A DNA stretch of 64,000 bases from an uncultured Gammaproteobacteria bacterium (GTDB lineage Bacteria > Patescibacteriota > Microgenomatia > Levybacterales > UBA12049). The stretch covers positions 849,313 through 913,312 of the forward strand of contig CAZDOJ010000001.1 in NCBI GenBank assembly GCA_964507055.1. The letters are read 5' to 3'. This document shows, piece by piece, positions 1,957 to 36,666 of the stretch. Numbering within the stretch: position 1 is the first letter of the stretch; each line of letters begins with the position of its first letter. The position numbers were made by a program, and so were the translations under genes. The notes under the pieces are model-generated. The model saw only the letters and a list, made by a program, of their open reading frames with translations, was not told the DNA's origin and made no database searches.

Positions 1957-2928
<972 letters not shown>

Positions 2929-2944
2929 TTAATATTTCTCTATT

Positions 2945-3892
2945 CTAAACTATATTTCTCCAATAGTCCAGTGTATCTTTCAGCGTTTTTTCAAAAGGAA
3001 TTTCAGCTTCCCAACCTATCGCATCTTTTACTTTTTTTGTGTCTGCAAAAATATCAGGAACATCACTTGGACGCATTTTTGCAGGATCTTGTTCAACTGT
3101 GATCTTTGATTCAGATAAAGCTAAGAGTCCATCAAGAATTTCTTGAGCACTTCTGGATTTTCCCGAACCTGCATTATACACTTCTCCAGGCTCGCCTTTT
3201 TCTAAAAGCATTGGGTATAAGCGAACCATATCTCGAACATCAGTGAAATCACGTTTGGCATCTAAATTTCCGACTCTCATTATTGGTTCTCGTTTTGATT
3301 TTTCTATCTCGGCAATTTGCTTAGCAAAATCTGAAACAACAAATGTGGGAGCTTGTCTTGGACCGACATGATTAAATGGACGGACGCGAACAATAGGAAG
3401 TTTATATGATAACTGATATTGAAATCCGAGGTAATCCTGAGCAATTTTTGAAACTGCATATGGGTTTGCAGGACGATGTGGAGTGTTCTCGCTTACGGGA
3501 AGATCTTCGGGTCGGATAAAACCATAGACTTCCGCTGATGTAACAAGCAGTACTTTTGTCTGCAGCATTTCTTTTTCTTTTAAACTGAGAAAAAGATTAA
3601 GTTGTGAATCGATATTTGCATGAAAGGTATGGATTGGATCTTTTATGCTCTGAGGGACATTTGATTGTGCAGCCAAATGAAAAATCCAGTCAGGTTTTAC
3701 TTCATCGAGTAGTACATCCACGTCTGATTTATTTTGCAAATCAGCTTTAAGAAATTTGAGGCGATCACCTGATCCGGTTGGGGATTCTGATCTATATGTC
3801 CCGTAAATTGTGTAATCACTAGTTGCAAGTAAATGATCAGTTAAGTGACTTCCGACAAAACCTGAGGCTCCAGTAATAAGTACCTTTTTCAT
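2945..3892 (-). CDS. NAD-dependent epimerase/dehydratase; probable GDP-4-dehydro-6-deoxy-D-mannose reductase (Rmd-like)
   Basis: MKKVLITGASGFVGSHL Rossmann motif and 315 aa. It lies immediately 5-prime of gmd in the same operon. The exact substrate is inferred. Confidence 0.6.
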   Translation of the reverse strand: MKKVLITGASGFVGSHLTDHLLATSDYTIYGTYRSESPTGSGDRLKFLKADLQNKSDVDVLLDEVKPDWIFHLAAQSNVPQSIKDPIHTFHANIDSQLNLFLSLKEKEMLQTKVLLVTSAEVYGFIRPEDLPVSENTPHRPANPYAVSKIAQDYLGFQYQLSYKLPIVRVRPFNHVGPRQAPTFVVSDFAKQIAEIEKSKREPIMRVGNLDAKRDFTDVRDMVRLYPMLLEKGEPGEVYNAGSGKSRSAQEILDGLLALSESKITVEQDPAKMRPSDVPDIFADTKKVKDAIGWEAEIPFEKTLKDTLDYWRNIV

Positions 3893-5181
3893 TATCTTCC
3901 TACACCGATGTAATTAAAGCCGAGTTCACGTGCTTCTTCAGGATTATAGAGATTACGAGCGTCAACAATGAGTGGTGAGTTCAGCCATTTTTTAACTTGT
4001 TTAAGCTCCAAATCTTTAAATTCATTCCATTCAGTTAATACAAGCATAGCGTCTGCATCTGTAAGTGCTTCTTTCGCAGACTTAGCAAATGTTATATCAG
4101 AAATAACTTTTGCTGCCGTTTCACGTGCTTCAGGATCATAGGCTGAGATAATTGCTCCGTCATTTTTTAGCAACTCCAAAATATCAATTGCAGGAGCATC
4201 ACGCATATCATCAGTATTTGCTTTAAATGCTAATCCAAGAACTCCAATACGCTTTCCACGAACATCACCTAATGCATGTCTGACCTTCTTCACAATGTCA
4301 CGTTTTGCTTGAGAATTAACTTGTTCTGTTTGATTGAGTAAACCAAAATCATAATCGAAATCTTTTGCAATTGTGATCAAAGCACGAACATCCTTCGGGA
4401 AGCAACTTCCACCGTATCCTGGTCCTGGAGCCAAGAATTTATCCCCGATACGATTATCCATACCAATTCCCTCAAGCACTTTGATACCATCTGCACCGAC
4501 AAGTTCGGATAACTTTGCAATTGCATTTGCATATGAAATTTTCATTGCTAAGAAAGAGTTAGCCGCATATTTGATCAACTCAGCTGTATCAAAATCTGTA
4601 GAAACAACTGGAGCATCTACTGGTTTATGCAAGTCTACTAATAATTTTTTAGCCCGATCACTTTTTGTACCGATAACAACACGATCGGGATGTAACGTAT
4701 CTGAGATTGCACTTCCTTCACGCAAGAATTCTGGAATTGATGCATAATCAAATTCTGCACCCTGAGGCTTATTTTCTTGAATAATTCTACTCACTTTTCT
4801 ATTGGTACCTGATGGTACTGTACTCTTTGTTGCAACGACTGTGTATCCTGACAAATGCTTTGCTATCTTTTCTGCAACACTTAATACAGTTTTCAAATTA
4901 GCATCGCCAGTCTTTGTTGTCGGAGTTCCAACTGCAATAAACACAGCATCTGAATCAGGGATAGCTGGATTATAATCAAGAGTAAAAAGAAGACGTTTTG
5001 CTTTAATATTCTTTTTAACCAGCTCTGTAAGGCCTGGTTCGTAAAACGGAGTAATTCCCTTTTTAAGATCATCAATTTTTTCTTGCGTATGTCCTATGAC
5101 GTAAACTGTATTTCCAAAATCAGCAAAAACAGCTGCTGTTACTAAACCCACGTATCCATGTCCAATGAAAGTTATTGTCAT
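3892..5181 (-). CDS. ugd: UDP-glucose 6-dehydrogenase
   Basis: MTITFIGHGYVGLVTAAVFADFGN... with the GGSCFPKD catalytic Cys motif, 429 aa. Confidence 0.9.
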   Translation of the reverse strand: MTITFIGHGYVGLVTAAVFADFGNTVYVIGHTQEKIDDLKKGITPFYEPGLTELVKKNIKAKRLLFTLDYNPAIPDSDAVFIAVGTPTTKTGDANLKTVLSVAEKIAKHLSGYTVVATKSTVPSGTNRKVSRIIQENKPQGAEFDYASIPEFLREGSAISDTLHPDRVVIGTKSDRAKKLLVDLHKPVDAPVVSTDFDTAELIKYAANSFLAMKISYANAIAKLSELVGADGIKVLEGIGMDNRIGDKFLAPGPGYGGSCFPKDVRALITIAKDFDYDFGLLNQTEQVNSQAKRDIVKKVRHALGDVRGKRIGVLGLAFKANTDDMRDAPAIDILELLKNDGAIISAYDPEARETAAKVISDITFAKSAKEALTDADAMLVLTEWNEFKDLELKQVKKWLNSPLIVDARNLYNPEEARELGFNYIGVGR

Positions 5182-5182
5182 A

Positions 5183-6046
5183 TTATTTCAATTCCAAGAG
5201 GCCTTCTTCGAAGGATTTCATTCTTACCCCAAGTTGATCTATTTTATCATTATTTATTGTTAAGTCAAATGGTCTTGGGGCTTTGCTTGCAAAGTATTCA
5301 GCACGTGTTGTCTTACTAATCAACGATTCATCATAACCAAAATTCTTAGCAATAAGGAGACTTGCATCATATGGAGTTAAACTCTGGCTACCAACAGCAT
5401 GATAAATTCCGGTTGCATTATTTGTTATTAAAGCATCAATAGCTGGAGCAAGATCGTCAATAAATGTTGGAGTAAAGATATGATCAGTAATTGCTTTAAT
5501 TGGTAATCCTTCTGCTAATCTTCCTGCAACTGCTCGAACAAAATCTTTCTTCGCATCAAACGATTTTCGATACGGATAAGCAATTCGCAAAATGATATAG
5601 GGTATTCCTGCTTTTTTAACAACTTCCTCACCTTTTTCCTTGGTCTCAGCATACCAACCGAGTGGTAAAGGTGTATCTTCTTCTGTATATCCACCTTTTG
5701 GTGTATCCTCACCATTAAAGACAAAGTCGGTCGATATATAAATCATTTTTTTATTACCGATCTTACATGCAGTAGCTACATTTTGTGTTCCAGCAACATT
5801 AATCTTATATGCAGGGCCTTCTTCTCCTAATTCTTTATCTTGTTCACAACCATCTACATCTGCTTTTGCTGCAAGATGAATAACTACAGCATGTTCAGTA
5901 TCATTTTTTATAACATCAAGGCTATCAGGATTGGTTATATCAACACCACTTGTCAAACTCAAATCATCAAATGAATATTTGTATTGCAACAATTCAACGA
6001 TTCGTGAACCAACTAAACCTGATCCTCCAATTGTAAATATTTTCAT
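5183..6046 (-). CDS. RmlD-like SDR reductase (dTDP-4-dehydrorhamnose reductase family)
   Basis: MKIFTIGGSGLVGSRIVELL N-terminal Rossmann fold and a YAETK catalytic YxxxK, 287 aa. It sits between ugd and the NUDIX/rfbB genes. Confidence 0.55.
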   Translation of the reverse strand: MKIFTIGGSGLVGSRIVELLQYKYSFDDLSLTSGVDITNPDSLDVIKNDTEHAVVIHLAAKADVDGCEQDKELGEEGPAYKINVAGTQNVATACKIGNKKMIYISTDFVFNGEDTPKGGYTEEDTPLPLGWYAETKEKGEEVVKKAGIPYIILRIAYPYRKSFDAKKDFVRAVAGRLAEGLPIKAITDHIFTPTFIDDLAPAIDALITNNATGIYHAVGSQSLTPYDASLLIAKNFGYDESLISKTTRAEYFASKAPRPFDLTINNDKIDQLGVRMKSFEEGLLELK

Positions 6047-6570
6047 AATTTTCCTTGTTCCAATAACTCCTTATATAATAATATAGTAGCACTATGGCTT
6101 GCTGCAACTATTTTGCCTGAGATAACATTATCAACAGCCTCATCCAATGTCATCTGTATCTGACTAATTTCTTCATCTTCATCCGGATGAGCTTCTCCTT
6201 CAGATAGATCAGTTGCGACAAAAACATAAATCTTGGAATTCATGTTTACTGAAGCTTCCCACTCTGCTATTTGCTTCCAAGATTTTGCAGTGAGACCAGT
6301 TTCCTCCTGCAATTCTCTTTGGGCAGTTGCCATAGGTTCTCCATCTTCTTCCATCGTTCCGGCAACTACTTCCAATAATGTCTTATTAAATGCGTCACGA
6401 TGCTGTGAGATTATATGAAGCTTTCCATCAGGATAGATTGGGAGAATAAACACAGCAGAATTCCTTTCTATAAATTCTTTCGTAAATGTTTTCCCATGCT
6501 TCTCTAAGATAACTTTATTTATGCGGAAATACTTTGCACGGTATGCTTCTTCTTTGGAAATAATCTTCAT
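6043..6570 (-). CDS. NUDIX hydrolase (nucleotide-sugar or ADP-ribose pyrophosphatase type)
   Basis: Nudix box GTMEEDGEPMATAQRELQEETGL. I trimmed the start to ATG 6568-6570 (MKIISKEE...), which overlaps the rfbB stop as ATGA. The track ORF 6043..6633 would overlap rfbB by 67 nt. Confidence 0.75.
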   Translation of the reverse strand: MKIISKEEAYRAKYFRINKVILEKHGKTFTKEFIERNSAVFILPIYPDGKLHIISQHRDAFNKTLLEVVAGTMEEDGEPMATAQRELQEETGLTAKSWKQIAEWEASVNMNSKIYVFVATDLSEGEAHPDEDEEISQIQMTLDEAVDNVISGKIVAASHSATILLYKELLEQGKL

Positions 6571-7580
6571 CTGTCTTCGTATTGTTTTTGATAGTATTCT
6601 GCGTACTCTCCAGATTTGATTCGTTGCCACCATTCAGGATTATCCCGATACCAAGCAACTGTCTTTTCAAGCCACTCATCAAAACTATGCTGCGGAGCCC
6701 AACCTAATTCATTTTTGATCTTTGACCAATCGACATCGTATTTTCGATCATGTCCTGGACGATCTTTCACATATTCAATTGAACTCTCATCTTTTCCCAA
6801 AAGTTTAATAATCTTCCTTGCGATTTCAATGTTGGGAGCGAGTTCTGTCATACCCCCAACTAAATATGTTTCACCAATTTTACCTTTTTGTAAAACCATG
6901 TCAATTGCTCGACAATGATCTTCAACATAGAGCCAATCTCTGACATACAGTCCGTCCCCGTAGATTGGAACCTTTTTCCCTTCGAGCAAATTAGTGATCG
7001 TTAAAGGAATAAATTTTTCGGGGAATTGATATGGTCCAAAATTGTTTGAACAATTTGTAATTGTCACAGGCAAACCAAATGCGATATTGTAAGCTCGGAC
7101 TAAATGATCTGATCCAGCTTTACTTGCAGGATAAACACTTCTTGGTTCGTAATTAGTCTTTTCTGTAAACTTTCTTGTATCTCCAAGTTCTATGTGTCCA
7201 AAAACTTCATCAGTTCCGATATGGTGGAATCGTTTCACTTGATTTTCCAATGCTGCATCTAAAAGAACCTGTGTTCCAACAACATTGGTTAAAACTGTCG
7301 TAAGACGATCCATATTTGCACGATCATTATGGCTTTCAGCTGCGAAGTGAACGACAACATCAATTCCTGGCATGACTGCATTGACTGCATCAGGATCGCT
7401 GATATCACCTTGGACAAATGAGTAATTTTCATTCGCCTCAATCGATGCAAGATTTTCAAGATTTCCTGCGTAGGTTAATTTATCGAAGTTAACGATATGG
7501 TCTTCGGGATGGTTTTTAAGCCAATACAGAATAAAATTAGAGCCAATAAATCCGGCGCCACCGGTTACGAGTATTTTCAT
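6567..7580 (-). CDS. rfbB: dTDP-glucose 4,6-dehydratase
   Basis: MKILVTGGAGFIGSNFILYWLKNHPEDHIVNFDKLTYAGNLENL..., 337 aa, classic RmlB. Confidence 0.9.
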   Translation of the reverse strand: MKILVTGGAGFIGSNFILYWLKNHPEDHIVNFDKLTYAGNLENLASIEANENYSFVQGDISDPDAVNAVMPGIDVVVHFAAESHNDRANMDRLTTVLTNVVGTQVLLDAALENQVKRFHHIGTDEVFGHIELGDTRKFTEKTNYEPRSVYPASKAGSDHLVRAYNIAFGLPVTITNCSNNFGPYQFPEKFIPLTITNLLEGKKVPIYGDGLYVRDWLYVEDHCRAIDMVLQKGKIGETYLVGGMTELAPNIEIARKIIKLLGKDESSIEYVKDRPGHDRKYDVDWSKIKNELGWAPQHSFDEWLEKTVAWYRDNPEWWQRIKSGEYAEYYQKQYEDR

Positions 7581-7593
7581 ATAAAGACAGTGT

Positions 7594-8334
7594 TTACTTG
7601 AGTTCCCCAGCTGCTACTTTTTCTTGAACCAAAATATTGGCACGAAGAAGTTCATCATAAGAAGTGCCAGCATCAATCCACCAGTCAATAAGCTCGAATG
7701 ACATGGTACCTTCTTTTACGTAGAAGTTATTGAGATCAGTAACTTCAAGTTCTCCACGAGCTGATGGCGACAATCCTTTGATAAACTCGAAGACTCGACT
7801 GTCATACATATAGATACCTGTTTGAGCATAATCTGATTTAGGGAACTCTGGCTTTTCTTCGATTGAAAGTACTTTTCCGTTCTCATCTGTTTCGATGACA
7901 CCATATTGCTTTGATTCTGTTGGCATCTTTATACCAAATATTTTTGCACCTTTATCTTGGGATTCCAATGCTTCAACAGATTTCTTTAAGTTATGACCAA
8001 AGATATTATCACCAAGCAATACTGTAACTTTTTCACCTCTCGCGAATTCTTCAGCAAGCATAATTGCATCAGCAATTCCACCTTTTGGATTTTTTTGTAC
8101 TGCATAATAAAGCTTGAGACCAAACTCTTCTCCCGCTCCAAGTAAACTTGCAAAATGACCAGCATGATCAGCAGATGAAGTTAAAAGTACTTCTTTAATC
8201 CCTGCTTTTGCCATAGCTTCAAGGGGATAATAGATCATCGGTTTATTGTAGATCGGAAGGAGATGCTTATTGGTTACGTATGTAAGTGGACGGAGTCTTG
8301 TTGCCAAACCTCCAGCTAATATAACACCTTTCAT
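7594..8334 (-). CDS. rfbA: Glucose-1-phosphate thymidylyltransferase (short form)
   Basis: MKGVILAGGLATRLRPLT... nucleotidyltransferase signature, 246 aa. Confidence 0.9.
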   Translation of the reverse strand: MKGVILAGGLATRLRPLTYVTNKHLLPIYNKPMIYYPLEAMAKAGIKEVLLTSSADHAGHFASLLGAGEEFGLKLYYAVQKNPKGGIADAIMLAEEFARGEKVTVLLGDNIFGHNLKKSVEALESQDKGAKIFGIKMPTESKQYGVIETDENGKVLSIEEKPEFPKSDYAQTGIYMYDSRVFEFIKGLSPSARGELEVTDLNNFYVKEGTMSFELIDWWIDAGTSYDELLRANILVQEKVAAGELK

Positions 8335-8382
8335 AGATTACTTGTCATTATACTACAAGAGTTTCACTTTCACAAAGCGTGA

Positions 8383-9318
8383 TTATTGCTTCACTTTTAG
8401 CTTTGATAGTGCTCTTTTTTGCATAAGATCAATCCCTTTAAAAATCCCCCACTGTACAAATGCAGGATATGTATTATGATAATTTTTTCTGTAAAATGTT
8501 CTCATAGAATCAAATCTCCATCCTTGTGCTCGCTTCTTTCCCTCAACATTTGCTGTCGTAACATTTTGCGAGGCAGCCTTGATACCACTTGAAGCTCCGC
8601 CAATATGCATAATCTTTACTTCTCCTATATAATATACTTTGTATCCAAGTTCGTGGATATCGTAACAAAACTGAAGATCTTCGCCGTAAAAGAAATAATC
8701 TTCATCCCACCAACCGACTTTCTCTCCAACTTCACGCCGTACCATCATGAAAGCTCCTTCAACTGCATCGACTTCATGCGTGGTATTGAGATCTTTCCAA
8801 CCTTGTGTGTATCCGGAAAATAAACGATTCTTTGGGAACTTTCTCTGTAATCCCGAAAAGAATGTGAACGCATTCCATGGGGTTGGAAATCCGCGATGAC
8901 AATTAAAATCAAGATCACCATCTTTATTTATTAGCTTACAAGAAGCTGCACCAGCATCTGGATGTGCATCCATGAAGGAGATTAGATGAGTAAGTGTTTT
9001 GGGGTAAACGATTGTATCGGGATTGAGGAATAGAACATATCGTCCCTTTGCAAAAGGTAGTCCTTTATTATTTCCAGCTGCAAATCCAATATTCCCACCA
9101 TTATCGACCGCATGAAAAGATTTGATCTTTGTGTGCTTTTTGTATTCTTTAAATGCTTGATAAGAATTATCCGGAGATTGGTTATCGGTGACAATAACTT
9201 CAATATTTCCAGAAGCAACATCTTGGGGATAATGCTTTTCAATTGATTTAATAGCATCAAGCGTTATTTCCTTTGTATTATATGAAAGAATAATAATCGA
9301 TAAATCTACACGTGCCAT
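8383..9318 (-). CDS. Glycosyltransferase family 2
   Basis: LSIIILSYNTKEIT...VIVTDNQSPDNS; a DxD-type GT2-A fold. Confidence 0.8.
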   Translation of the reverse strand: MARVDLSIIILSYNTKEITLDAIKSIEKHYPQDVASGNIEVIVTDNQSPDNSYQAFKEYKKHTKIKSFHAVDNGGNIGFAAGNNKGLPFAKGRYVLFLNPDTIVYPKTLTHLISFMDAHPDAGAASCKLINKDGDLDFNCHRGFPTPWNAFTFFSGLQRKFPKNRLFSGYTQGWKDLNTTHEVDAVEGAFMMVRREVGEKVGWWDEDYFFYGEDLQFCYDIHELGYKVYYIGEVKIMHIGGASSGIKAASQNVTTANVEGKKRAQGWRFDSMRTFYRKNYHNTYPAFVQWGIFKGIDLMQKRALSKLKVKQ

Positions 9319-9386
9319 ATCAAAATCATTATATACAGATTGGTATCAAATGAACAGCTTAGTCGCAATTAGTATATAATAGAAGC

Positions 9387-10316
9387 ATGAAACACGTTGC
9401 TGTCGTCACAGTAAACTACAATACAGAACAAGATACGATTGATCTCCTTCACAGCCTTAAAAAAATAAATAAACAAAATATTAAACTCGATATTATTATT
9501 GTCGATAATGGTTCAAAAGATGTTTTTGAACTTCCAAACGATAGTAAGAAAGATCACATTAAACTTATACGATCCGATACCAATACAGGCTTTTCTGGTG
9601 GATACAATATGGGGATAAAAGAAGCATTAGTAAAACAAGCAGAATATGTATTGATCGTCAATAACGATACATTAATGCATCCGGATATGATTGTGCATCT
9701 CTTAGCAGTCCTTGATAGTGAGGCATCTATTGGAGTCACTACACCAAAGATATACTTCGCGAAGGGACATGAATTCCATAAAGATCGGTATAAGAAAGAC
9801 GATCTTGGGAAAGTATTTTGGTTCGCTGGAGGACATACTGATTGGGCAAATGTACAGAGTATCCATAGAGGCGTTGATGAAGTTGATCATGGACAATATG
9901 ATAAAACTGAAGAAATTGGATTTGCAACGGGATGCTGCATGATGTTTAAGAGAGAAGTGCTAGAGAAAGTCGGAATGTTTGATGATGATTTCTTTCTTTA
10001 CTACGAAGATGCTGACCTCAACGAACGAATCAGAAGAGCGGGATATAAGATCTTCTATGTACCAGATGCTGTTTTAACACATGTTAACGCTGCATCTTCA
10101 GGTGGAGCCGGAAACGGAAATGTATTGCAGGATTATTTTATTACGCGAAACAAAATGCTCTTCGGTATGAAATATGCACCGTTCAGAACCAAATTGGCAT
10201 TGATTCGAGAAAGTTTACGATTACTGAGAAATGGACGGGAATTTCAAAAAATTGCTCTTCAAGATTATTATCAAGGAAGATTTAATAAAGGTACATTCTT
10301 TGAAAAGCGTAAATAA
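9387..10316 (+). CDS. Glycosyltransferase family 2 (WbbL/rhamnosyltransferase-like)
   Basis: VAVVTVNYNTEQDT...IIIVDNGSKD...YEDADL motifs. Confidence 0.8.
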   Translation: MKHVAVVTVNYNTEQDTIDLLHSLKKINKQNIKLDIIIVDNGSKDVFELPNDSKKDHIKLIRSDTNTGFSGGYNMGIKEALVKQAEYVLIVNNDTLMHPDMIVHLLAVLDSEASIGVTTPKIYFAKGHEFHKDRYKKDDLGKVFWFAGGHTDWANVQSIHRGVDEVDHGQYDKTEEIGFATGCCMMFKREVLEKVGMFDDDFFLYYEDADLNERIRRAGYKIFYVPDAVLTHVNAASSGGAGNGNVLQDYFITRNKMLFGMKYAPFRTKLALIRESLRLLRNGREFQKIALQDYYQGRFNKGTFFEKRK

Positions 10317-10317
10317 T

Positions 10318-11199
10318 TTAGATAGCTTCTAGAGCTTTTGTATAAGTTTCCACAAGATAAGGTTTATTTGTAACTTTCCCTAAGCGAATCAAACTTTTTG
10401 CTTTAGTAACCATCATCGCTTTGACAATCTTATATTCCGTAGGCGAACGATGTTTCTTATAAAAATACAAAAGGTTTTTATAGATATTAACTATCGCAAA
10501 AGTTTTATTTGTACTTCCATGCTCTTTATGCAAGACCAAGACATCTGGATAGAAGTAAACATCTTTTCCAGCCAGATGTGCTCGATAGCAAATTTCCATA
10601 TCTTCTGTATACATAAAAATCTTCTCATCAAATCCACCTAGTGCATCAAATGCAGTTTTGCGAATCATCATAAGTCCACCTTTTACCCAATCAACTTTCT
10701 CAATTCCGTCAGGACTTTTATCAAGCATTCCATAGCGTTGTCCGCCAGCCAAAAGTAAAGCCGCATAGCCTAATGTATAAAACTTTCCAGTTGATGCTTG
10801 AAGCGTGCCATCAAAATTACGCAATTGTCCACCTAAAATAGCAACCTCTTTATGTTCATCCATGTATTTTGCCATTGCAAAAACTCCATGATCTTTGACA
10901 ATAGTGTCATTGTTCAAAAATAGTATGTATTTTCCCTTCGCTGATTTTGCTCCAAGATTGCATCCTGCTCCAAAACCACTGTTGGAAGGATTAGCGATGA
11001 CATGCATATTTTTGTATGCTTTTTCTTTTATTTCTTTTTTCATTGCATGCACCGAACCATCTTGAGAATCATTATCAACGATGATAAGTTCGATATCATC
11101 GAACTCAAATTCGTGCTTAAATACTTCATACAATGACTGCATACAATCAATTGTTAATTGATGTCTCTTATAATTTAACGTCACAATAGAAAGTGTCAT
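10318..11199 (-). CDS. Glycosyltransferase family 2
   Basis: LSIVTLNYKRHQLT...LIIVDNDSQDGS...YTEDMEI. Confidence 0.8.
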   Translation of the reverse strand: MTLSIVTLNYKRHQLTIDCMQSLYEVFKHEFEFDDIELIIVDNDSQDGSVHAMKKEIKEKAYKNMHVIANPSNSGFGAGCNLGAKSAKGKYILFLNNDTIVKDHGVFAMAKYMDEHKEVAILGGQLRNFDGTLQASTGKFYTLGYAALLLAGGQRYGMLDKSPDGIEKVDWVKGGLMMIRKTAFDALGGFDEKIFMYTEDMEICYRAHLAGKDVYFYPDVLVLHKEHGSTNKTFAIVNIYKNLLYFYKKHRSPTEYKIVKAMMVTKAKSLIRLGKVTNKPYLVETYTKALEAI

Positions 11200-12149
11200 A
11201 CTTTATTCTCCTTTAAAACAGATCTATCTGTACGTACGAAGAGTTTTCGGGCTCTATAGCGGGAATCTTTCACCCTATCCATCTGTGCAAGTGCCAAAAG
11301 AAATCCCTGAATAAAAACAAAATCTCTTCGGAGAATCGCTTTGAGCAAATGATATGGCATCCAAAAAATATGTGAAAGTAATAAATTTTTATCTGTTATA
11401 TTTTTCCATATAAAAAAGTATTGATTTCGATATGCGATCTTCTGAATATGCTTTGGCTTAAATTTTGTTTTTATTGCTCCTTCTTCATGTTCATGGACAA
11501 CGACGCTTTGTGGTTCAAAAATTATTTTGTATCCCGATTTCCACGCACGGTAGCAAAGATCAATGTCTTCCCAATAGAACGGATTAAACAAGTTATCAAG
11601 TCCTCCTAATTTATCCCAAATCTTCTTATTGAAAGCACTACTTCCCCCACTTGCCCAAAGTGAATGACCCGCTGAAACATCTGCTGCTTTATGCTGGAGA
11701 AATCCTCGTTGCCACCAACCAACTGCACGGCCACGAGGAACACTTTTGCCTTCTTCCATACTTTCATCAAGACATCCAACTGCAAACACTTTTTCATCTG
11801 AAAAATGAGCAAGTAACGGTTCGAGAAATTCCTTGTATGGCCGAACATCTGAGTTAAACAAGATAAGTATATCTCCTGTAGCAAGCAATACTCCACGATT
11901 CACATTCTTTGAAAAACCTGATTCCTCTCTTTTTGTATTATCAATTGTTTTTCCAATAATATGTTTTTCCTTAATTGCGTTAATGAAATCGGCAATAACT
12001 TCCGCTGATTTATCAGTGGAAGGGTCATTGGGAATAATGATTTCTACTTTTCCTTTTTTATATTCTTTTACTGATTCGAGAACATGCGGAAGATTTTTCT
12101 TTAATATCTTTTCTCCATTGTAGTTTGGGATAATAATACTAATGTTCAT
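11196..12149 (-). CDS. Glycosyltransferase family 2
   Basis: MNISIIIPNYNGEKILKKNLPHV... I trimmed the start to ATG 12147-12149. The longer track ORF begins with an implausible hydrophobic 18-aa extension. Confidence 0.75.
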   Translation of the reverse strand: MNISIIIPNYNGEKILKKNLPHVLESVKEYKKGKVEIIIPNDPSTDKSAEVIADFINAIKEKHIIGKTIDNTKREESGFSKNVNRGVLLATGDILILFNSDVRPYKEFLEPLLAHFSDEKVFAVGCLDESMEEGKSVPRGRAVGWWQRGFLQHKAADVSAGHSLWASGGSSAFNKKIWDKLGGLDNLFNPFYWEDIDLCYRAWKSGYKIIFEPQSVVVHEHEEGAIKTKFKPKHIQKIAYRNQYFFIWKNITDKNLLLSHIFWMPYHLLKAILRRDFVFIQGFLLALAQMDRVKDSRYRARKLFVRTDRSVLKENKV

Positions 12150-12156
12150 AACTCGT

Positions 12157-12417
12157 CTATACACTAAAAAGGTACAGGGAGAGTACCACACCCAGGCAGG
12201 CAATCAAAATATATTCTATAACAAGTCGCACATGTAATTCATGATGTACATAATGATGAAGCAACGACCAGATGAAATAGCAAGTCGCTGTCATCGTAAT
12301 AATAAGTGCCTGTAACTTATTATCATGATTATTTAAAACGATAAGCGTCAAACCCAATCCAAAAATGATCAGCGTTGAACTGTAATACCAAATATGTTTG
12401 CGAAGATCTGTAATCAT
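12157..12417 (-). CDS. Small hypothetical membrane protein (2-3 TM)
   Basis: 86-aa hydrophobic ORF whose start codon shares one base with the stop of the upstream CAP gene (TAATG). Confidence 0.45.
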   Translation of the reverse strand: MITDLRKHIWYYSSTLIIFGLGLTLIVLNNHDNKLQALIITMTATCYFIWSLLHHYVHHELHVRLVIEYILIACLGVVLSLYLFSV

Positions 12418-15889: not shown

Positions 15890-16321
15890 CTACTGAGCAA
15901 TTCGTATTTTCCTCTTATCCTCTTGAAGATACTCAAAATAAATATCAATTTTATTCTTAGGAAGCACCTTTTTAATCTTTTCTGGCCATTCAATTGCTAC
16001 AATATTTTCTTTCTCTCCGAGTAACTCTTTTAATCCTAGACCATCAATATCATTTTCAGATGCAATTCTGTATAAATCTACATGATACAAATTCTGAATA
16101 TTGGAATCGTTTCCAATAGCATACGTTCGCATGATAATAAATGTTGGTGAAATGATATTTCGTTTAATACCTAAGCCTTTGGCTAATCCTTGCATAAATG
16201 TTGTTTTGCCAGAACCTAAATCACCATGCAATGCTAACACTTCGCCACCTTTTAATTTCTTCGCAAGTTCCAAACCGAGTGCTTGAGTTTCCTCAAAGCT
16301 TTTTGTAATTATTTTTTCCAT
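15890..16321 (-). CDS. tsaE: tRNA t6A biosynthesis ATPase TsaE (YjeE)
   Basis: Walker A LHGDLGSGKTTF, 143 aa, with typical TsaE size and motif order. Confidence 0.85.
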   Translation of the reverse strand: MEKIITKSFEETQALGLELAKKLKGGEVLALHGDLGSGKTTFMQGLAKGLGIKRNIISPTFIIMRTYAIGNDSNIQNLYHVDLYRIASENDIDGLGLKELLGEKENIVAIEWPEKIKKVLPKNKIDIYFEYLQEDKRKIRIAQ

Positions 16322-16322: not shown

Positions 16323-17198
16323 TTATGCTCGCTGCTTTAATTTTTTCAAAAATAAAAGAACAGCACACGCAATTATAAACCCTGCACCCAAAATTGTAAA
16401 AAGAGCAGGTGCACTGGAAGCACCTTTCACTTTCATCGGAATTGATGGTAGAGGAATTCGAGTCGGTTCATTTGCTTTCGTTTTTGCTCCAAGAACAGCG
16501 GTTGGATACGCACCTCGACTGGCAACTTTTGCTGAGGGACTTACGGAGCGAGGTGATATAGGAACTCCTGAAATTCTTGGAGAAGACGTTGGGGAAGAAA
16601 CTCGTGTTGTAGGTGTTCGTGTGGCAGTGGTTCTTGAAATAGTAGATCCCGATTGTGTTTGATTTGACGAAGCGACTTGAGTGACTGCAGGTTTTGCGGT
16701 TGGTTCGGGTTCGTCGGTTGCCGTTGGCATTGGGCCAGCATTTGCACTTCCCCGTGTGGGATTAGATAGATACGCAAAACTACCAGTTCCATCAGGATAT
16801 CTTCCCATTGCGACATCATAACCAGGCCCATCAGTATAAGTGAGCTGGTCTGCGATAGATCCATTTGGATTAAACAGAACGACAGTATCACCATCGTTAT
16901 TAAACATTGATGCACTCAACTCAATATAATAATGCTGACTATCACTTCCAGCAATTACTCCATCAAGGCTTTTCTTTGCACTCCCACCTTCATCACTTGC
17001 AAAATCTGCATCATCATCAATCCAATAATTTTTGAGATTACTACTATCCGTGACATAGAATTCCACCCATTCTTTACTTCCTGCATTTGGATGAGTGAGT
17101 ACTTCATTAAGAGAAACTGGACCTGCTGCATAAGCTTGATTTGGCACACTCACCAGTAAAACAAGAAGAGAACCTAGTATAATGAGAAGAGACTGCAT
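16323..17198 (-). CDS. Lamin-tail-domain (LTD) cell-surface protein
   Basis: Signal peptide, then an LTD signature (LNEVLTHPNAGSKEWVEFYVTD...GDTVVLFNPNGSIADQLTY), an S/T/P-rich linker, and a C-terminal TM with a basic tail (LLFLKKLKQRA). Confidence 0.75.
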   Translation of the reverse strand: MQSLLIILGSLLVLLVSVPNQAYAAGPVSLNEVLTHPNAGSKEWVEFYVTDSSNLKNYWIDDDADFASDEGGSAKKSLDGVIAGSDSQHYYIELSASMFNNDGDTVVLFNPNGSIADQLTYTDGPGYDVAMGRYPDGTGSFAYLSNPTRGSANAGPMPTATDEPEPTAKPAVTQVASSNQTQSGSTISRTTATRTPTTRVSSPTSSPRISGVPISPRSVSPSAKVASRGAYPTAVLGAKTKANEPTRIPLPSIPMKVKGASSAPALFTILGAGFIIACAVLLFLKKLKQRA

Positions 17199-17251: not shown

Positions 17252-18415
17252 TTAGTTATACCAACCATATGAAGAAATGCCAGCGTAGTAATCAGAAAAC
17301 TTTAGATCAGGACCGTTCCATGGATCATGCATTATGTAATTCCCAGAAGAACCACTTTTCAAAACAATAAAATGGGAATTTCCTTTAACTCCAACAATAA
17401 CGGGCTCACCACCTGCTAACTTACTATCAATTGCTGATTGGTTGTAGCCGGATGCCGAAGAAAATTTACCTCCACCCCACGGAATTGCCATGTAGGCTGT
17501 ATTTGAAAAGAAGTATGAACTATTGCTTGTTACTGAGGCCGGAGTTACATCTTCTCCGTGCTTTTTCATAATCATTGCCATTGATGTCGCTAAACATCCA
17601 ACTTCCCAAACATATTCTGGCGAAGATCCCATATTTGAATTGCCCCATCGAGAATCACGTTGATTAAAATACCATCCATCAGGACTTGCTTGAGGAGGTA
17701 GAACAGATCCACCGTGTCCTCTTGCAAAAGACTTCATAGAATTGACCTGTGCTCGAGCTTGGGAGAGTAGCTGTTGGTAGTGAGCTTCGTCGTTCTTGGT
17801 CGTGGCCAGAAGAGTTTGTTTTGATGCTTTATCTTTATCTAACTGTACTTGATATCCTTCTAATTGCTTGTTCAATTCTTCAACCTTCTTTTTCTTTTGC
17901 TCGAGGATGACTTTTTGATTCGCGTAATCATTACGTGCTTGCTGAGTATCATAGAGCAGTTGTCTATCATGACTTTGAACAATTTTTAAATAATTTGATC
18001 GAGACATAAGGTCGGATATATTTCCGGATGCCAACAACACTTGTAACTCTTTCGCATCACCTGCTTGATAGGTTGCGACAATTCTATTAAGTAAGACTTT
18101 TGTCACGTTATCGAGTGAGCCTTCCAAATTACTCATCCGCTTACTTGCTGATTCGATATCGAGGGTAATCTCCATTACTTCTTTTTGCGTTGTATCAATA
18201 CGATATTCAGTCAATGAAATTTGCCCATCCATTGCAGCTATTTGAGAAGAGAGAGAATTACCCTGCGATTTGAGATCGGATACTTTTCTTTCTAATTCGC
18301 GGATACGATTATTGAGATCCGAAACTTGTTGCTGATTAGCAGTTTGTGCATAAACGAATGCACCACTTAATCCAAAACCTAGGATAGCAAGAGTAAATAT
18401 TATTAACTTTTTCAT
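17252..18415 (-). CDS. Secreted coiled-coil protein with a C-terminal C39-like (Peptidase_C39_2/papain-fold) cysteine-peptidase domain; putative FtsEX-associated peptidoglycan hydrolase
   Basis: Signal peptide, about 200 aa of heptad-rich coiled coil, then NQRDSRWGNSNMG...VGCLATSMAMIM...GNSHFIVL...IMHDPWNG. This gives a Q...C...H...D order consistent with C39-like domains. It lies immediately downstream of ftsE-ftsX. Confidence 0.7.
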   Translation of the reverse strand: MKKLIIFTLAILGFGLSGAFVYAQTANQQQVSDLNNRIRELERKVSDLKSQGNSLSSQIAAMDGQISLTEYRIDTTQKEVMEITLDIESASKRMSNLEGSLDNVTKVLLNRIVATYQAGDAKELQVLLASGNISDLMSRSNYLKIVQSHDRQLLYDTQQARNDYANQKVILEQKKKKVEELNKQLEGYQVQLDKDKASKQTLLATTKNDEAHYQQLLSQARAQVNSMKSFARGHGGSVLPPQASPDGWYFNQRDSRWGNSNMGSSPEYVWEVGCLATSMAMIMKKHGEDVTPASVTSNSSYFFSNTAYMAIPWGGGKFSSASGYNQSAIDSKLAGGEPVIVGVKGNSHFIVLKSGSSGNYIMHDPWNGPDLKFSDYYAGISSYGWYN

Positions 18416-18461
18416 ATGTTTGTAATTAAGTTCCTGAATTACTTCAGGAGAACATTATAAA

Positions 18462-19373
18462 CTATTTCAAATACCGACGTACGGCAAGTGAGCTGGCGAG
18501 GATGCCAAGGAAAACTGCGATAAGCAATTCTCCAAAAAGTAGTGCAACCAAAAAGATTGGTGACACCGGCAGTACAGGAATACCCTTTAAGAATGTTTCA
18601 AGGTATGGCGTCGCATAAAGCAATCCACCTGAGGCAATCACCCAACCGATAAGTGTTCCAAGTACTCCATAGAAAATACCTTCAAGAATGAAAGGCCAAC
18701 GAATATACCAATTCGTCGCGGAAAGTAACTTCATAATTTCAATTTCTTCCTTCTTTTGTGAAACTTTGAATCCGATGACCGTCATCATAATAAAGACTGA
18801 AACCAAGGCTAAGACTGCAATTAATGTAATACCGATAATACGCACGGCGTTGGTCCAACTTGCCAAGGTAGAAACAATATCCTTCTGATAAATCACTTCA
18901 TTTACATAGGGAGACGATCGTAAAGTATTTGAAACAGGCTCAAGATCTTCAATTTTGTATGTCGAAATCTCAAGTGATGCAGGCAAAATATCTTCTGTCA
19001 CAAGATCAAGAAGCAAAGGATCATCTTTATTTTGCTCTTTGTAAATTTGTAGTGCTTCAGCCTTGGAGACATACTTTGTTGAGGCAATTTGTCCTGATTG
19101 TTGGAGCTGAGCTCTCAGTTGATCAATATCTTGTGGTTTTGCTTCATCTTTAAAGAAGGCTGTTACTTGTGGCTTTGATTCGAAATATTGAATAACCGCT
19201 GATGATCCAAAGACGATAAATGAGAAAATGGTAATCGAAAGAAATGTCAGCATCATAATAAAAACAGCTGCCATTGACTGATATGGACTTCTTCGAATAT
19301 GTTTTAATGTTGTTTTGGTTGCTCGCATATTATTCTTCTTTCTTCGCATGAGACTTTGGCTCACGCTTATCAT
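18462..19373 (-). CDS. ftsX: Cell-division ABC transporter permease-like protein FtsX
   Basis: Four TM helices with a large extracellular loop after TM1. It follows ftsE. The true start is probably ATG 19349 or 19328, because the track start overlaps ftsE by 44 nt. Confidence 0.75.
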   Translation of the reverse strand: MISVSQSLMRRKKNNMRATKTTLKHIRRSPYQSMAAVFIMMLTFLSITIFSFIVFGSSAVIQYFESKPQVTAFFKDEAKPQDIDQLRAQLQQSGQIASTKYVSKAEALQIYKEQNKDDPLLLDLVTEDILPASLEISTYKIEDLEPVSNTLRSSPYVNEVIYQKDIVSTLASWTNAVRIIGITLIAVLALVSVFIMMTVIGFKVSQKKEEIEIMKLLSATNWYIRWPFILEGIFYGVLGTLIGWVIASGGLLYATPYLETFLKGIPVLPVSPIFLVALLFGELLIAVFLGILASSLAVRRYLK

Positions 19374-20025
19374 CTCTTGTCAGAATACCTTTTTCAAGAA
19401 TTAATGTTCTTTTCTGCATACTATTTACAATGTCAGCATTGTGGGTCGCCATAATAATTGTTGTGCCGCTATCATTGATATCTTGCAACAATTTTACAAT
19501 CTCCCACGTAGTAGCATTATCTAAATTACCAGTTGGTTCATCTGCAAGCAAGATCTCGGGATTAAAAGCCAAAGCTCTCGCAATTGCTGCTCTTTGTAAT
19601 TCTCCTCCGGATAGTTGGATAGGAAATTTGTTAATATGTTCCTGAATTCCGACACGTTCGATAATCTCTTCAACACGCTTTTTAGCATCATGTGTATCCA
19701 TATTTCCAACTTCTAAAGGAAACATGATATTTTCAAAAATTGTACGATCACGCAAAAGCTTTAAATCCTGAAATACCATTCCAATATTTTTTCTAAGATG
19801 ATGCACTTTTTTATGAGGAAGTGTAACTAAATCCCAATCACCAATATGAATTGCACCACTTGTCGGGACAGTATCTCGGATCAATAACCGGAACAATGTT
19901 GTCTTCCCAGATCCGGAAGGACCCACAAGAAAGACAAATTCACCTCTATCAATATTAAAAGTAACATCGGCAAGTGCTGTATTTCCCGTCGGATATGCTT
20001 TGGTAACATTTTCTAGTCGTATCAT
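19330..20025 (-). CDS. ftsE: Cell-division ATP-binding protein FtsE
   Basis: GPSGSGKTT Walker A, LSGGELQRAAIARAL signature, and ADEPTGNLD Walker B. Confidence 0.9.
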   Translation of the reverse strand: MIRLENVTKAYPTGNTALADVTFNIDRGEFVFLVGPSGSGKTTLFRLLIRDTVPTSGAIHIGDWDLVTLPHKKVHHLRKNIGMVFQDLKLLRDRTIFENIMFPLEVGNMDTHDAKKRVEEIIERVGIQEHINKFPIQLSGGELQRAAIARALAFNPEILLADEPTGNLDNATTWEIVKLLQDINDSGTTIIMATHNADIVNSMQKRTLILEKGILTRDDKREPKSHAKKEE

Positions 20026-20112: not shown

Positions 20113-20670
20113 TTATTGAACCTCAACTCGTCCAACATCCATGAGCCAGCCTGCATGCTGTGCGGTTTGAGTAGCTCCCCATACCTTTATCTTCTTATCA
20201 ACAAATTTGGATAGATCAACGGTTGAAGAAGTCATATAGACGTTTTGACTTTCACCACCTGGTCGCTCCAAATGATATTGTCCTTCCCCTTCAATGCCGC
20301 CTTCTTTAAGCGTTCCCTCAGCTGTATCTTTATATGCTGAAGTATCTTCTGTACCAAAGGTCTGACCTTTTGCAGGGGCATTTGGATTAAGTGCACCGGG
20401 TACCACACTTTTTTGTCCTGGTTTCGAAGAAAACGCTGCAACTCCATAGCCAGTGCCTACTCCAAGTGCTGCCATAACCAACAGTACGACAAGAATTTGT
20501 ACTGTTGATGGTCCTTTCTTTGTATCCTTAAATGATTGCATAGTTGATCCTGATGATTTGCTTTCAAATGCTAATTTTGAGGTAGAAGACCCGTCTGTTT
20601 TTGTAGCAACAGAAGCCGGTGTTGAACTTGTTGCTGGCTGAGATTGTTTTGGTGTTTCTTTGCTTTCCAT
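20113..20670 (-). CDS. Hypothetical bitopic membrane protein
   Basis: S/T-rich N-terminus, one TM helix (VQILVVLLVMAALGVGTGYGVAAF), and a C-terminal domain of unknown function. Confidence 0.5.
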   Translation of the reverse strand: MESKETPKQSQPATSSTPASVATKTDGSSTSKLAFESKSSGSTMQSFKDTKKGPSTVQILVVLLVMAALGVGTGYGVAAFSSKPGQKSVVPGALNPNAPAKGQTFGTEDTSAYKDTAEGTLKEGGIEGEGQYHLERPGGESQNVYMTSSTVDLSKFVDKKIKVWGATQTAQHAGWLMDVGRVEVQ

Positions 20671-31176: not shown

Positions 31177-33015
31177 ATGATTAGATTAATTGGTGTTACT
31201 AAAAAAGATAAGGATATACTACTCTACTACGCCTATACAAAAAACGGTAAGAATTTCTTTAAATGTGTCGCAAGTTCCGATGGATTTGAATTTGATGGTA
31301 CGACAAAGTATGTAATAATCACAGACACCAAAGGTCGTGAGGATGCAAAGTATGATTTCAGGAACTTTAATATAACTCCACAAGGTGATAAATTTGCGGT
31401 AGCATTTAAAGCAGGTCCCAAAGCAAAAGACCTTACTTTTGCAGTCTCAGACCAACTACTCCGCTGGACCAAAATCAACAAAGAAGAAACTATTAAAGAA
31501 GCCGGAGCACTTGTACCGGATTATAAGTACAAGCACCGACACGTTCTCTACACAGGCGAACAGAGTATAAAAGTCGCCTACTCGTCTCAGCTTGAGAGTT
31601 GGAAAACAGTCGATAAGCCTGTCCTTGAAAGTCGTGCAGGCTTTTTTGATGATGGAGACCTTGAGATTGCAAAAGTCTTTATCCATGCAGAGCAAATCCT
31701 TGTGATCTACTACTCGAAGTCACAAAAAGGAAAACACACTGTCTATAAAGTCGGTGCTGCATATTTTGATCCAAAGAACCCTGAACATCTTCTTTGGAGA
31801 ACTGAGAAACCTCTTTGGGAACAACCAGCACACCAACATGCAGATCCTTTACAGCCGCTTGATGTCGAAATGACGAAAGAGTACCTCATCCTTTATTGGA
31901 CAGTAAATGATTCCAATATTTATGCAGTAACATGCCCACTTCCAGGTGGAAGTCTCAGAGAAAAGGATATTCAAATCCTTTTGAAGAAGCCTCACCAGAA
32001 TCCAATTTTGAAACCACGTCCTGATCGAGTTTGGGAATCACGAGCAGTATTTAATTCAGCAGCACTGTATGAAGATGGCAAAGTACATTTCCTGTATCGT
32101 GCATTGGGAGATAGTGATCTTTCAGTCATTGGCTATGCAACAAGTTCCGATGGACTGACCATCGATGAGCGGTCCGAAGAACCGATTTATCTTCCACGTG
32201 AACCATTTGAAACCCCTGGCGGACAAGCATTCAAATCATTTGCAGATCACTTCGCATCCGGTGGAGGATATGGTGGAATCGAAGACCCACGTGTCACCAA
32301 AGTTGATGATACAGTCTTTATGACATATGTTGCATTTGATGGATGGAGTCCCCCACGAGCAGCTCTAACATCAATTCCTCTTGAGGATTTTCTCGCAAAG
32401 AATTGGAGCAAATGGAAAAAACCGCAACTCATTTCCCCTCCAGGGATGGTCAACAAGAGTGCAGTTATCTTCCCAGAAAAAATCAATGGAAAATATGTCG
32501 TTATCCATAGAGTGTATCCAAACATTCTGATTGATGTTCTTGATGATTTGAACTTCGATGATAAATATCTTACTGGTCATCATTTCATTCCACCTCGAAA
32601 GGGTCATTGGGACAGTAAAAAGATTGGTGCTGGTGCTCCTCCGATGTTAACGAAAGATGGGTGGCTCCTCATTTACCAATCTGTTGGATACCAAGATCCA
32701 GGTCGATATAAGATCGGTGCTATGGTTTTGGATAAAGACGATCCAACAAAGGTTCTGTATCGAACGAATAATCCAATTGTCTCACCAGACATGCCATATG
32801 ATAATGAAGGTTTTAAAGCAGGCGTTGTCTATCCTTGCGGTGCAGTTATCAAAGATGACAATCTCTTTGTCTATTATGGTGGAGCAGATACAATCGTGGC
32901 AGCCGCTACCGCAAACGTCGATGACTTCCTCGATAAGATGAAGAATCACAAAGAACCAAAGATGAGAAAAGTTAAAGCACCTGTGCTACACTCTAATCAC
33001 ACAGCACATGTGTAA
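31177..33015 (+). CDS. Two-module GH130 (DUF377) glycoside phosphorylase/hydrolase family protein
   Basis: The C-terminal module is an unmistakable GH130 match (GIEDPRV...YVAFDG...FPEKINGKY...DDPTKVLYRT...VYYGGADT). The N-terminal about 270 aa form a divergent second module (LLYYAYTKNG...ASSDGFEF). Confidence 0.75.
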   Translation: MIRLIGVTKKDKDILLYYAYTKNGKNFFKCVASSDGFEFDGTTKYVIITDTKGREDAKYDFRNFNITPQGDKFAVAFKAGPKAKDLTFAVSDQLLRWTKINKEETIKEAGALVPDYKYKHRHVLYTGEQSIKVAYSSQLESWKTVDKPVLESRAGFFDDGDLEIAKVFIHAEQILVIYYSKSQKGKHTVYKVGAAYFDPKNPEHLLWRTEKPLWEQPAHQHADPLQPLDVEMTKEYLILYWTVNDSNIYAVTCPLPGGSLREKDIQILLKKPHQNPILKPRPDRVWESRAVFNSAALYEDGKVHFLYRALGDSDLSVIGYATSSDGLTIDERSEEPIYLPREPFETPGGQAFKSFADHFASGGGYGGIEDPRVTKVDDTVFMTYVAFDGWSPPRAALTSIPLEDFLAKNWSKWKKPQLISPPGMVNKSAVIFPEKINGKYVVIHRVYPNILIDVLDDLNFDDKYLTGHHFIPPRKGHWDSKKIGAGAPPMLTKDGWLLIYQSVGYQDPGRYKIGAMVLDKDDPTKVLYRTNNPIVSPDMPYDNEGFKAGVVYPCGAVIKDDNLFVYYGGADTIVAAATANVDDFLDKMKNHKEPKMRKVKAPVLHSNHTAHV

Positions 33016-33035
33016 AGTAGAAATTCGGGTACAGT

Positions 33036-34985: not shown

Positions 34986-34986
34986 A

Positions 34987-36657: not shown

Positions 36658-36666
36658 TACTTTATT

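Follow-up and report, generated by a model that had tools for sequence, protein, structure and literature searches.

The ftsEX locus and the gene that follows it

The 64,000-nt stretch of DNA analyzed here (the window; assembly GCA_964507055.1, contig CAZDOJ010000001.1, positions 849,313 to 913,312) comes from an uncultured, ultra-small member of the Patescibacteriota (Microgenomatia; Levybacterales; UBA12049) and carries an ftsEX locus whose third gene encodes a putative FtsEX-controlled hydrolase. An earlier note on this DNA, made from the letters alone, had read the locus as ftsE-ftsX followed by a secreted coiled-coil protein with a C39-like cysteine peptidase module. The open reading frame (ORF) list of the window places ftsE, ftsX, and an ORF of 387 amino acids (aa) consecutively and head to tail on the minus strand, and models of FtsE and FtsX match the products of the first two, in keeping with that description. 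The features of the locus that matter for the argument are listed here.

19330..20025, minus strand: ftsE, 231 aa, ABC ATPase of the FtsEX pair (TIGR02673, ABC_tran)
18462..19373, minus strand: ftsX, permease-like membrane subunit that has an extracellular domain; longest ORF, 303 aa (FtsX_ECD and FtsX)
17252..18415, minus strand: gene for a coiled-coil C39_2-like peptidase, putative FtsEX-controlled hydrolase, 387 aa (ORF, domain matches, model)
18347..18415, minus strand: predicted Sec signal peptide, residues 1-23, MKKLIIFTLAILGFGLSGAFVYA (inspection)
17717..18340, minus strand: EnvC/PcsB-type coiled-coil hairpin, residues ~26-233 (model, profile, Foldseek)
17255..17683, minus strand: C-terminal papain-fold Peptidase_C39_2-like domain, residues ~245-387 (Pfam, PDB profile, Foldseek)
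17660..17662, minus strand: Q252 codon, putative oxyanion-hole Gln (invariant; role by analogy with the papain/C39 paradigm)
17594..17596, minus strand: C274 codon, putative catalytic nucleophile (invariant; Cys 17 of 3k8u)
17372..17374, minus strand: H348 codon, putative catalytic base (invariant; His 96 of 3k8u, counted from the alignment)
17324..17326, minus strand: D364 codon, putative third member of the triad, followed by invariant P365 (invariant; Asp 112 of 3k8u)

The product of ftsE passes the cut-off of the NCBIfam equivalog TIGR02673 (267.3 bits, cut-off 264.85) and scores 124 bits against Pfam ABC_tran. FtsX exceeds the Pfam cut-offs for both FtsX_ECD (PF18075; 66.9 bits) and FtsX (PF02687; 51 bits), and the NCBIfam FtsX models are its best matches by a wide margin. 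The ftsE stop codon, TAA, occupies positions 19332-19330, and an ATG stands one base further, at 19328. Homologues of FtsX align from about residue 15 of the longest ORF, i.e., from MRATKTTLKHIRR, and the true start of ftsX is probably this ATG at 19328, which would give a protein of 288 aa beginning MRATKTTLKHIRR.

A spacer of 46 bp separates the ftsX stop codon from the 387-aa gene, and a scan of these 46 bp found no terminator-like site. The spacer does hold a perfect hairpin, CCTGAA-GTAA-TTCAGG, at positions 18431-18446 of the minus strand; it is not a typical terminator because no T-run follows it. The promoter and terminator scan as a whole stayed at background level and leaves the limits of the transcription unit undefined.

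The partner protein carries a predicted signal peptide and an FtsEX-partner-type coiled coil

The N terminus of the 387-aa protein, MKKLIIFTLAILGFGLSGAFVYA/Q, looks like a Sec signal peptide; by inspection it has a KK n-region, a hydrophobic core, and a VYA-Q cleavage motif, so that the signal peptide claimed earlier is borne out to this extent. An AlphaFold2 model was built on an alignment of 115 full-length homologues, which are 22-47% identical to the window protein, and reached a mean predicted local distance difference test score (pLDDT) of 90.2 with a predicted template modeling score (pTM) of 0.76. A single-sequence model, in which the pLDDT of the catalytic domain was below 50, was discarded. 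Helices in the alignment-based model span residues 26-50, 55-119, 133-206, and 210-233, with an alpha/beta domain thereafter, and this helical stretch over residues 26-233 matches the coiled coil of about 200 aa that had been read from the sequence. Linker residues 231-250 are modeled at pLDDT 94-97, which together with the pTM is compatible with a docked head.

Searching the Protein Data Bank (PDB) with a profile of the full-length family returned Escherichia coli EnvC from FtsEX-EnvC complexes at 7.3e-20 (74.5 bits), Vibrio cholerae EnvC at 6.6e-17, PcsB at 7.8e-10, Cg1735 at 7.5e-7, and RipA at 1e-5, all of them spanning profile positions ~10-241. Generic coiled coils, such as tropomyosin, reached only ~24 bits with the same profile. 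Foldseek comparison of the model with the PDB placed PcsB (4CGK) first, followed by RipC in FtsEX/RipC (8IDC_E) and FtsX-bound EnvC (6TPI_A). Next came the N-terminal domain of RipA, Cg1735, and FtsEX/EnvC of V. cholerae; these top six, with 8tzl_E among the top matches, all belong to the class of FtsEX coiled-coil partners. Judged by these profile matches, the coiled coil is specifically homologous to the FtsX-binding hairpins, well above the level of generic coiled coils.

We considered and rejected the hairpin tip, the FtsX-binding region in EnvC, as the most conserved part of the coiled coil; residues 51-60 and 201-220 at its base are more conserved. A Foldseek search of viral structures filled up with coiled-coil hits on tape-measure and SMC-like proteins and was uninformative.

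A C39_2-type C-terminal domain with invariant putative catalytic residues

When 1.84 billion cluster representatives were searched with a profile of the C-terminal domain, 3138 proteins came up at E<=1e-3, of which 544 reached E<=1e-10. The top 150 are mostly ~390-450 aa long with the C39_2-like domain at the C terminus, and database labels of the homologues read "hypothetical protein," "C39 family peptidase," or, from JGI, "peptidoglycan hydrolase CwlO-like protein." One homologue, P0118, looks high-GC.

Only six columns are invariant in the alignment of 115 homologues: Q252, G273, C274, H348, D364, and P365, with the Cys lying in a GCLATS motif that starts at G273-C274. These are the ordered Q...C(LATS)...H...D(P) residues picked out in the earlier note, which had also named conservation of the catalytic Cys and His in orthologues as one of the points on which the peptidase assignment could fall. 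The invariance of Q252, C274, H348, and D364 across 115 diverse sequences argues for an active enzyme.

Scanned singly against Pfam, 111 of the 115 homologues contain Peptidase_C39_2 (PF13529) at E<=0.01, the best at 1.1e-15; Peptidase_C39 is found in 72, CC_PcsB in 43, and Peptidase_C70 in 11, and precomputed PF13529 assignments are present for most close homologues. The window protein has no Pfam match to CHAP (at E<=0.1), NlpC/P60, or M23, and neither CHAP nor NlpC/P60 is among the 25 commonest Pfam families of the 115 homologues. On these Pfam results and those of the PDB profile, we rejected a diverged CHAP or NlpC/P60 domain.

Against the PDB, the profile of the C-terminal domain matched 3ERV (a "putative C39-like peptidase"; 3.9e-5), the peptidase domain of ComA (3K8U/5XE8; ~8e-5), and 6MPZ (2e-3). 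The columns of C274, H348, and D364 fall on 3K8U chain positions 17, 96, and 112, which we take to be the published catalytic triad of ComA. In the Foldseek comparison of the model, the C-terminal domain matched 6MPZ with a probability of 1.0 and a TM-score of 0.54-0.58 on target length, and 7N87 also matched, so that a peptidase fold is recovered by profile and by structure. Going by its sequence, the domain is a member of the C39/C39_2 branch of the papain superfamily, with the residues ordered Gln-Cys-His-Asp. Its placement at the C terminus, behind a signal peptide and a coiled coil and with no transporter fusion, is unlike that of the PF03412 ABC-exporter peptidases.

The C39_2 subfamily is also found in other architectures, in homologues P0110, P0156, and P0103. 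In one of the three (450 aa), C39_2 comes after two LysM domains; in another (343 aa), it comes after a hydrophobic N-terminal segment that looks, by eye, like a VirB2/TrbC pilin; and the third, of 1090 aa, has multiple membrane segments with C39_2 at the end. These architectures suggest roles at the cell envelope. The His-Asp region of the window domain (HFxVLK...DPW.G; residues ~345-380, window ~17276-17383) has a weak likeness to chains deposited as contact-dependent inhibitor A (CdiA) and to PeiR, in the form of sub-threshold matches to CdiA 8SSM (E=0.003) and the endoisopeptidase PeiR 8Z4H (E=0.026).

The partner gene follows ftsX across related Patescibacteria

Through the C39 domain we found 19 loci in species-representative genomes of Levybacteria, Woesebacteria, and other Patescibacteria (metagenome-assembled genomes). 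Seventeen of them have the order ftsE, ftsX, coiled coil/C39, and in 15 of these 17 prfB and a small upstream ORF are also present, giving a recurring patescibacterial order of prfB, small membrane protein, ftsE, ftsX, and coiled-coil gene. Identity of the C39 domain among the 19 loci runs from 94% down to 41%. Locus L014 has no coiled-coil match at the threshold used, and L018 stops at a contig end; the contig of L019 ends within ftsE, yet ftsE, ftsX, and the coiled-coil/C39 gene are visible. Precomputed Pfam labels at L020 and L022 read ABC_tran, then FtsX_ECD with FtsX, then Peptidase_C39_2.

The records include a 1.61-Mb chromosome, OZ246394.1, that is 94% identical to the window across the query domain. 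It is one of ten records (L001, L002, L005, L007, L009, L011, L012, L014, L018, and L019) titled "uncultured Gammaproteobacteria bacterium" or "uncultured Pseudomonadales bacterium"; the locus in them is typical of Patescibacteria, and the organism names on them are probably wrong.

We also scanned metagenome contigs with an FtsX alignment, which avoids selection on the C39 domain. In the best 80 loci, FtsX is 59-88% identical to the window protein, so that all are fairly close relatives, and 53 of them have at least 1250 bp past ftsX and were counted. A homologous coiled coil lies directly downstream of ftsX in 52 of these 53, which upholds the conserved position beside ftsEX that the earlier note had wanted checked. 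The sole roomy locus with no partner gene is L059 (contig OBEQ010716211.1), where a Lamin Tail Domain (LTD) protein follows ftsX. Upstream, ftsE precedes ftsX in 59 of the 60 related loci with enough sequence. Adjacency of the partner holds across FtsX identities from ~37% to 93%, and the ftsX/partner junction in relatives is either a 4-nt overlap or a 3-nt gap.

These observations bear on whether the protein might instead be an autonomous secreted hydrolase whose adjacency to ftsEX reflects co-expression or chance operon structure, with no physical control. Distant coiled-coil C39_2 proteins (a Moranbacteria cluster and two others) are indeed encoded away from ftsEX, as that account would have it. 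However, envC, pcsB, and cwlO are likewise often unlinked to ftsEX in model organisms, pcsB not being adjacent to it, so little can be concluded from genes that are unlinked elsewhere. The specific homology of the hairpin is to coiled coils solved together with FtsX, the adjacency holds in 52 of the 53 loci selected on FtsX and across a wide range of FtsX identities, and the genes overlap or lie a few bases apart, all of which makes an autonomous hydrolase very unlikely.

One coiled coil carries either a C39_2 or an M23 head

The 52 coiled coils selected through FtsX do not all end in the same enzyme: 34 run on into C39_2, and 18 carry M23, a bona fide peptidoglycan-peptidase family. The idea that the catalytic module is swapped at this position thus finds a direct counterpart in close relatives that bear Peptidase_M23 on a homologous coiled coil at the same place. 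The 18 M23-type partner proteins are 388-420 aa long. All 18 were assigned to M23 by tblastn, and Peptidase_M23 scored over the Pfam gathering threshold in each of the eight that were scanned (30.8-70.4 bits against 28.7). Tandem paralogues, with a C39 and an M23 gene at each locus, were ruled out; no locus holds both types or two coiled-coil genes.

The window protein is 46% identical overall by BLASTP to the M23-type protein of locus L072, and the likeness is strong over window residues 27 to ~230 and gone beyond. A closer pair is formed by L050 (M23; Ga0209542_10092021) and L054 (C39; Ga0066639_10001910), whose FtsX proteins are 93% identical. At the DNA level, these two loci share 81.6% identity over 2837 nt, a stretch that takes in the upstream gene together with ftsE, ftsX, and the greater part of the coiled coil and stops ~70 nt before the coiled coil ends. 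This boundary looks like a recent recombination breakpoint.

On neighbor-joining trees of both FtsX and the coiled coil, the C39 and M23 types interleave, which excludes a single ancient split. By Fitch parsimony, the FtsX tree needs a minimum of 9 changes (bootstrap range, 8-11) and the tree of the coiled coil a minimum of 7 (bootstrap range, 4-9). Given this repeated replacement of one module by the other, the C39_2 and M23 heads appear to be functionally interchangeable.

The M23 domains of the alternative partners are circularly permuted (L084:4933-6099, L072:4876-6087, L061:4849-6084, and 15 other loci). The usual C-terminal segment, GxxGxSTGPHLHFE, comes first and the usual N-terminal part (HTGID ... 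YxH) comes last; Pfam profile positions 59-96 match ahead of positions 2-52, and phmmer aligns the M23 halves with 9GY1 and zoocin A in reversed order. A 2022 review of M23 makes no mention of circular permutation. The zinc motifs HxxxD and HxH are kept in the permuted domains.

That both kinds of head keep their active-site residues speaks to another possibility, namely that the C39_2 domain is catalytically dead and activates a separate amidase, for which the degenerate LytM domain of E. coli EnvC is a precedent (PMC11627006). Four active-site residues that are invariant in 115 diverse homologues are the opposite of a degenerate site, and the alternative M23 modules also retain their zinc motifs. 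We regard a dead domain as extremely unlikely.

Relation to characterized FtsEX partners and C39 peptidases

In characterized FtsEX systems, ATPase cycles of FtsE pass through FtsX to a coiled-coil partner, which is either a hydrolase (PcsB, CwlO, RipC) or a hydrolase activator (EnvC) and whose head is restrained against the coiled coil until activation (PMC11627006). A 2024 review of FtsEX names only LytM, CHAP, and NlpC/P60 partners (PMC11627006). Among these proteins, Streptococcus pneumoniae PcsB (4CGK) is like the window protein in having ~390 aa, a signal peptide, an N-terminal coiled coil, and a C-terminal papain-fold cysteine hydrolase. It differs in that its catalytic domain is CHAP (C51), of the NlpC/P60-CHAP cluster, whereas that of the window protein is C39_2 with the order Q-C-H-D; the PcsB equivalog NF046104 scores 18.2 bits on the window protein against a cut-off of 450.

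Of the sequence relatives of the coiled coil, EnvC (E. coli, V. cholerae, and Pseudomonas aeruginosa; 6TPI, 8HD0, and 8TZL) is the strongest; it has the same hairpin, and EnvC and the M23-type sister proteins at the locus both carry an M23 domain. EnvC's own LytM domain is degenerate and activates the amidases AmiA/B (PMC11627006), whereas the window protein is without M23 and has an intact cysteine-peptidase site. The window host, going by its lineage, is not a diderm (PMC7143001). The EnvC model NF008644 matches only the coiled coil of the window protein, with 34.8 bits against 270.

CwlO of Bacillus subtilis, RipC/RipA of mycobacteria, and Cg1735 of Corynebacterium likewise combine a coiled coil with a C-terminal cysteine endopeptidase. 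The CwlO/RipC class is directly activated by FtsEX, and its catalytic domain is NlpC/P60 (C40), unlike that of the window protein, in which the NF046048 match covers the coiled coil only (26 bits against 517). Since their defining catalytic domains are absent, the window protein is not a member of the PcsB, CwlO, or RipC family. CwlO requires the cofactors SweC/SweD (PMC6705773); none is recognizable at the window locus. By analogy, the 387-aa protein would nonetheless be likely to work as PcsB, CwlO, or RipC does.

C39 domains form the N-terminal, cytoplasmic part of ABC exporters, where they cleave double-glycine leaders. C39 and C39_2 peptidases (Bacillus anthracis 3ERV, and ComA/LahT/PCAT1) share their fold with the window domain, and their catalytic Cys, His, and Asp align with it; the window domain differs from them in its predicted extracytoplasmic location, its fusion to an EnvC-type coiled coil, and its link to FtsEX. 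C39_2 proteins have been described as single-domain peptidases, and the C39/C39_2 branch is set apart from the NlpC/P60-CHAP cluster (PMC10318531). A precedent for C39-like modules in peptidoglycan-degrading proteins comes from phage endolysins: PhaLP lists 260 phage-lysin entries with a C39-like peptidase module, class PET_C39 (PMC8310338), and the N5 domain of mycobacteriophage LysA is another C39-like lysin module (PMC3314691), the lysin assignments being mostly bioinformatic.

A proposed FtsEX-activated cell wall peptidase

We propose, at a probability of roughly 70%, that the 387-aa protein is an FtsEX-activated cell wall peptidase for cell division; the locus as a whole is probably the FtsEX cell-division module of Levybacteria-like Patescibacteria, encoded together with its extracellular effector. 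In the mechanism we envisage, the signal peptide would export the effector, and its antiparallel hairpin would dock on the extracellular domains of an FtsX dimer, as the hairpins of EnvC, PcsB, and RipC do, placing a C39_2-type cysteine peptidase at the far end. At rest, the peptidase would be kept inactive against the coiled coil. Binding and hydrolysis of ATP by FtsE at the division site would then alter the shape of FtsX and of the hairpin, and the freed peptidase would cut wall peptide bonds, in the peptidoglycan stem or cross-link, and let the daughter cells separate. Given the hairpin's homology, the linkage in the operon, and the interchangeability with M23, the same FtsEX logic is the best explanation. 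A peptidoglycan substrate is supported indirectly, by the equivalence with M23 at the locus, the LysM-fused relatives, the C39-like modules of phage lysins, and peptidoglycan synthesis in Microgenomates, which lack a Gram-negative envelope and whose genomes encode that synthesis essentially complete (PMC7143001).

Several results weigh against this proposal, in addition to the distant homologues that lie away from ftsEX. The assignment to Peptidase_C39_2 that the earlier note had made stands at the level of the family, but the window protein itself falls just under the gathering threshold (residues 271-366, 23.8 bits against 24), as it does for Peptidase_C39 (PF03412; 21.9 against 22) and, in the coiled coil, for CC_PcsB (residues 96-161; 25.3 against 27). 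The window FtsX is under the cut-offs of the Gram-positive, Gram-negative, and actinobacterial NCBIfam models with which it was compared (190.5 against 225, 183.3 against 255, and 121.3 against 250), which fits a divergent lineage. Because the trees are neighbor-joining on short proteins, the exact number of head swaps is uncertain. No phage lysin relative of the C-terminal domain was found in a PHROGs scan, and tblastn of the domain against 50,697 phage records gave no match. Finally, the characterized C39 peptidases that we know of cut double-glycine leader peptides, not peptidoglycan.

The last two points would also fit a different activity on the same scaffold, in which the FtsEX-tethered C39_2 domain processes proteins or peptides where the cell divides, perhaps maturing or shedding a surface protein or secreted peptide. 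Its nearest solved relatives are leader-peptide proteases (ComA PEP 3k8u, LahT 6mpz, and PCAT1 7n87), two of which, 6mpz and 7n87, are described in the PDB as double-glycine or bacteriocin-transporter peptidases, and C39_2 belongs to the papain/cathepsin cluster and not to the NlpC/P60-CHAP cell wall cluster (PMC10318531). However, close relatives carry the M23 peptidoglycan peptidase on the same scaffold after several replacements, implying equivalent function, and every characterized coiled-coil partner of FtsEX acts on peptidoglycan (PMC11627006). Relatives fused to LysM and C39-like domains in endolysins point the same way. Protein processing is therefore unlikely in our view, and a wall peptidase under FtsEX control remains the preferred account.

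Neighboring genes

Three further genes flank the locus.

20113..20670, minus strand: up185, gene for a single-pass membrane protein upstream of ftsE, 185 aa (synteny)
16323-17198, minus strand: gene for a secreted protein, 291 aa (Lamin Tail Domain, linker rich in Ser/Thr/Pro, hydrophobic anchor at the C terminus)
15890-16321, minus strand: tsaE

In 48 of 49 roomy related loci, and also at the more distant L020 and L022, the up185 gene lies on the same strand between prfB and ftsE. Its product has a low-complexity N terminus and a conserved C-terminal domain of ~90 aa with invariant W175 and M177-D178-V179-G180; by inspection, the N terminus would lie in the cytoplasm, with the C-terminal domain on the outside. 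Pfam, NCBIfam, and the PDB returned no match to up185. Its synteny suggests that it could belong to the ftsEX unit and be an unrecognized FtsEX accessory factor. On the other side of the locus, the order partner gene, LTD protein, tsaE recurs in Levybacteria-like loci.

Elsewhere in the window, 631-12203 (minus strand) and 31177-38226 hold a surface-polysaccharide cluster and two tandem GH130 phosphorylase-like genes. The cluster encodes GT2 glycosyltransferases, RmlD-like and GDP-mannose-dehydratase-like enzymes, and a UDP-glucose dehydrogenase, and the tandem GH130 phosphorylase-like genes adjoin glycogen phosphorylase and starch synthase. This polysaccharide and GH130 neighborhood is ordinary for Microgenomates.

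Implications for FtsEX and the C39_2 family

FtsEX with a coiled-coil hydrolase is the main known coupling of cytoplasmic division signals to cleavage of the wall, and it is an antibacterial target. In the literature searched, which was thin on subscription journals, we found no description of a C39-type FtsEX partner; the pieces are already annotated, but not, to judge from that literature, their combination. Neither C39_2 nor a permuted, apparently active M23 is among the FtsEX effector domains of the 2024 review, in which the LytM domain of EnvC has the canonical order and is degenerate (PMC11627006).

If activation by FtsEX is independent of the attached module, C39_2 would be a fourth class of FtsEX-controlled cell wall hydrolase module, after M23/LytM, CHAP, and NlpC/P60, and the wider C39_2 family, for which little of a biological role has been defined, would gain a function in the cell wall. 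The FtsEX principle would reach another branch of the papain superfamily, among the mostly uncultured and poorly understood Patescibacteria, and many proteins labeled "hypothetical," "C39 family peptidase," or "CwlO-like" would acquire a function that can be tested.

The chances seem to us evenly balanced that activation by FtsEX is independent of the module attached, and that one patescibacterial coiled coil has repeatedly exchanged C39_2 for a permuted, apparently active M23, and the reverse, by recombination at the domain boundary. The interest of the finding rests mainly on the natural domain-swap series that these loci provide, in which near-identical FtsEX proteins and coiled coils bear either C39_2 or permuted M23 heads. 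With such a series, one may ask how enzymes of unrelated structure are held back and set free by a coiled coil.

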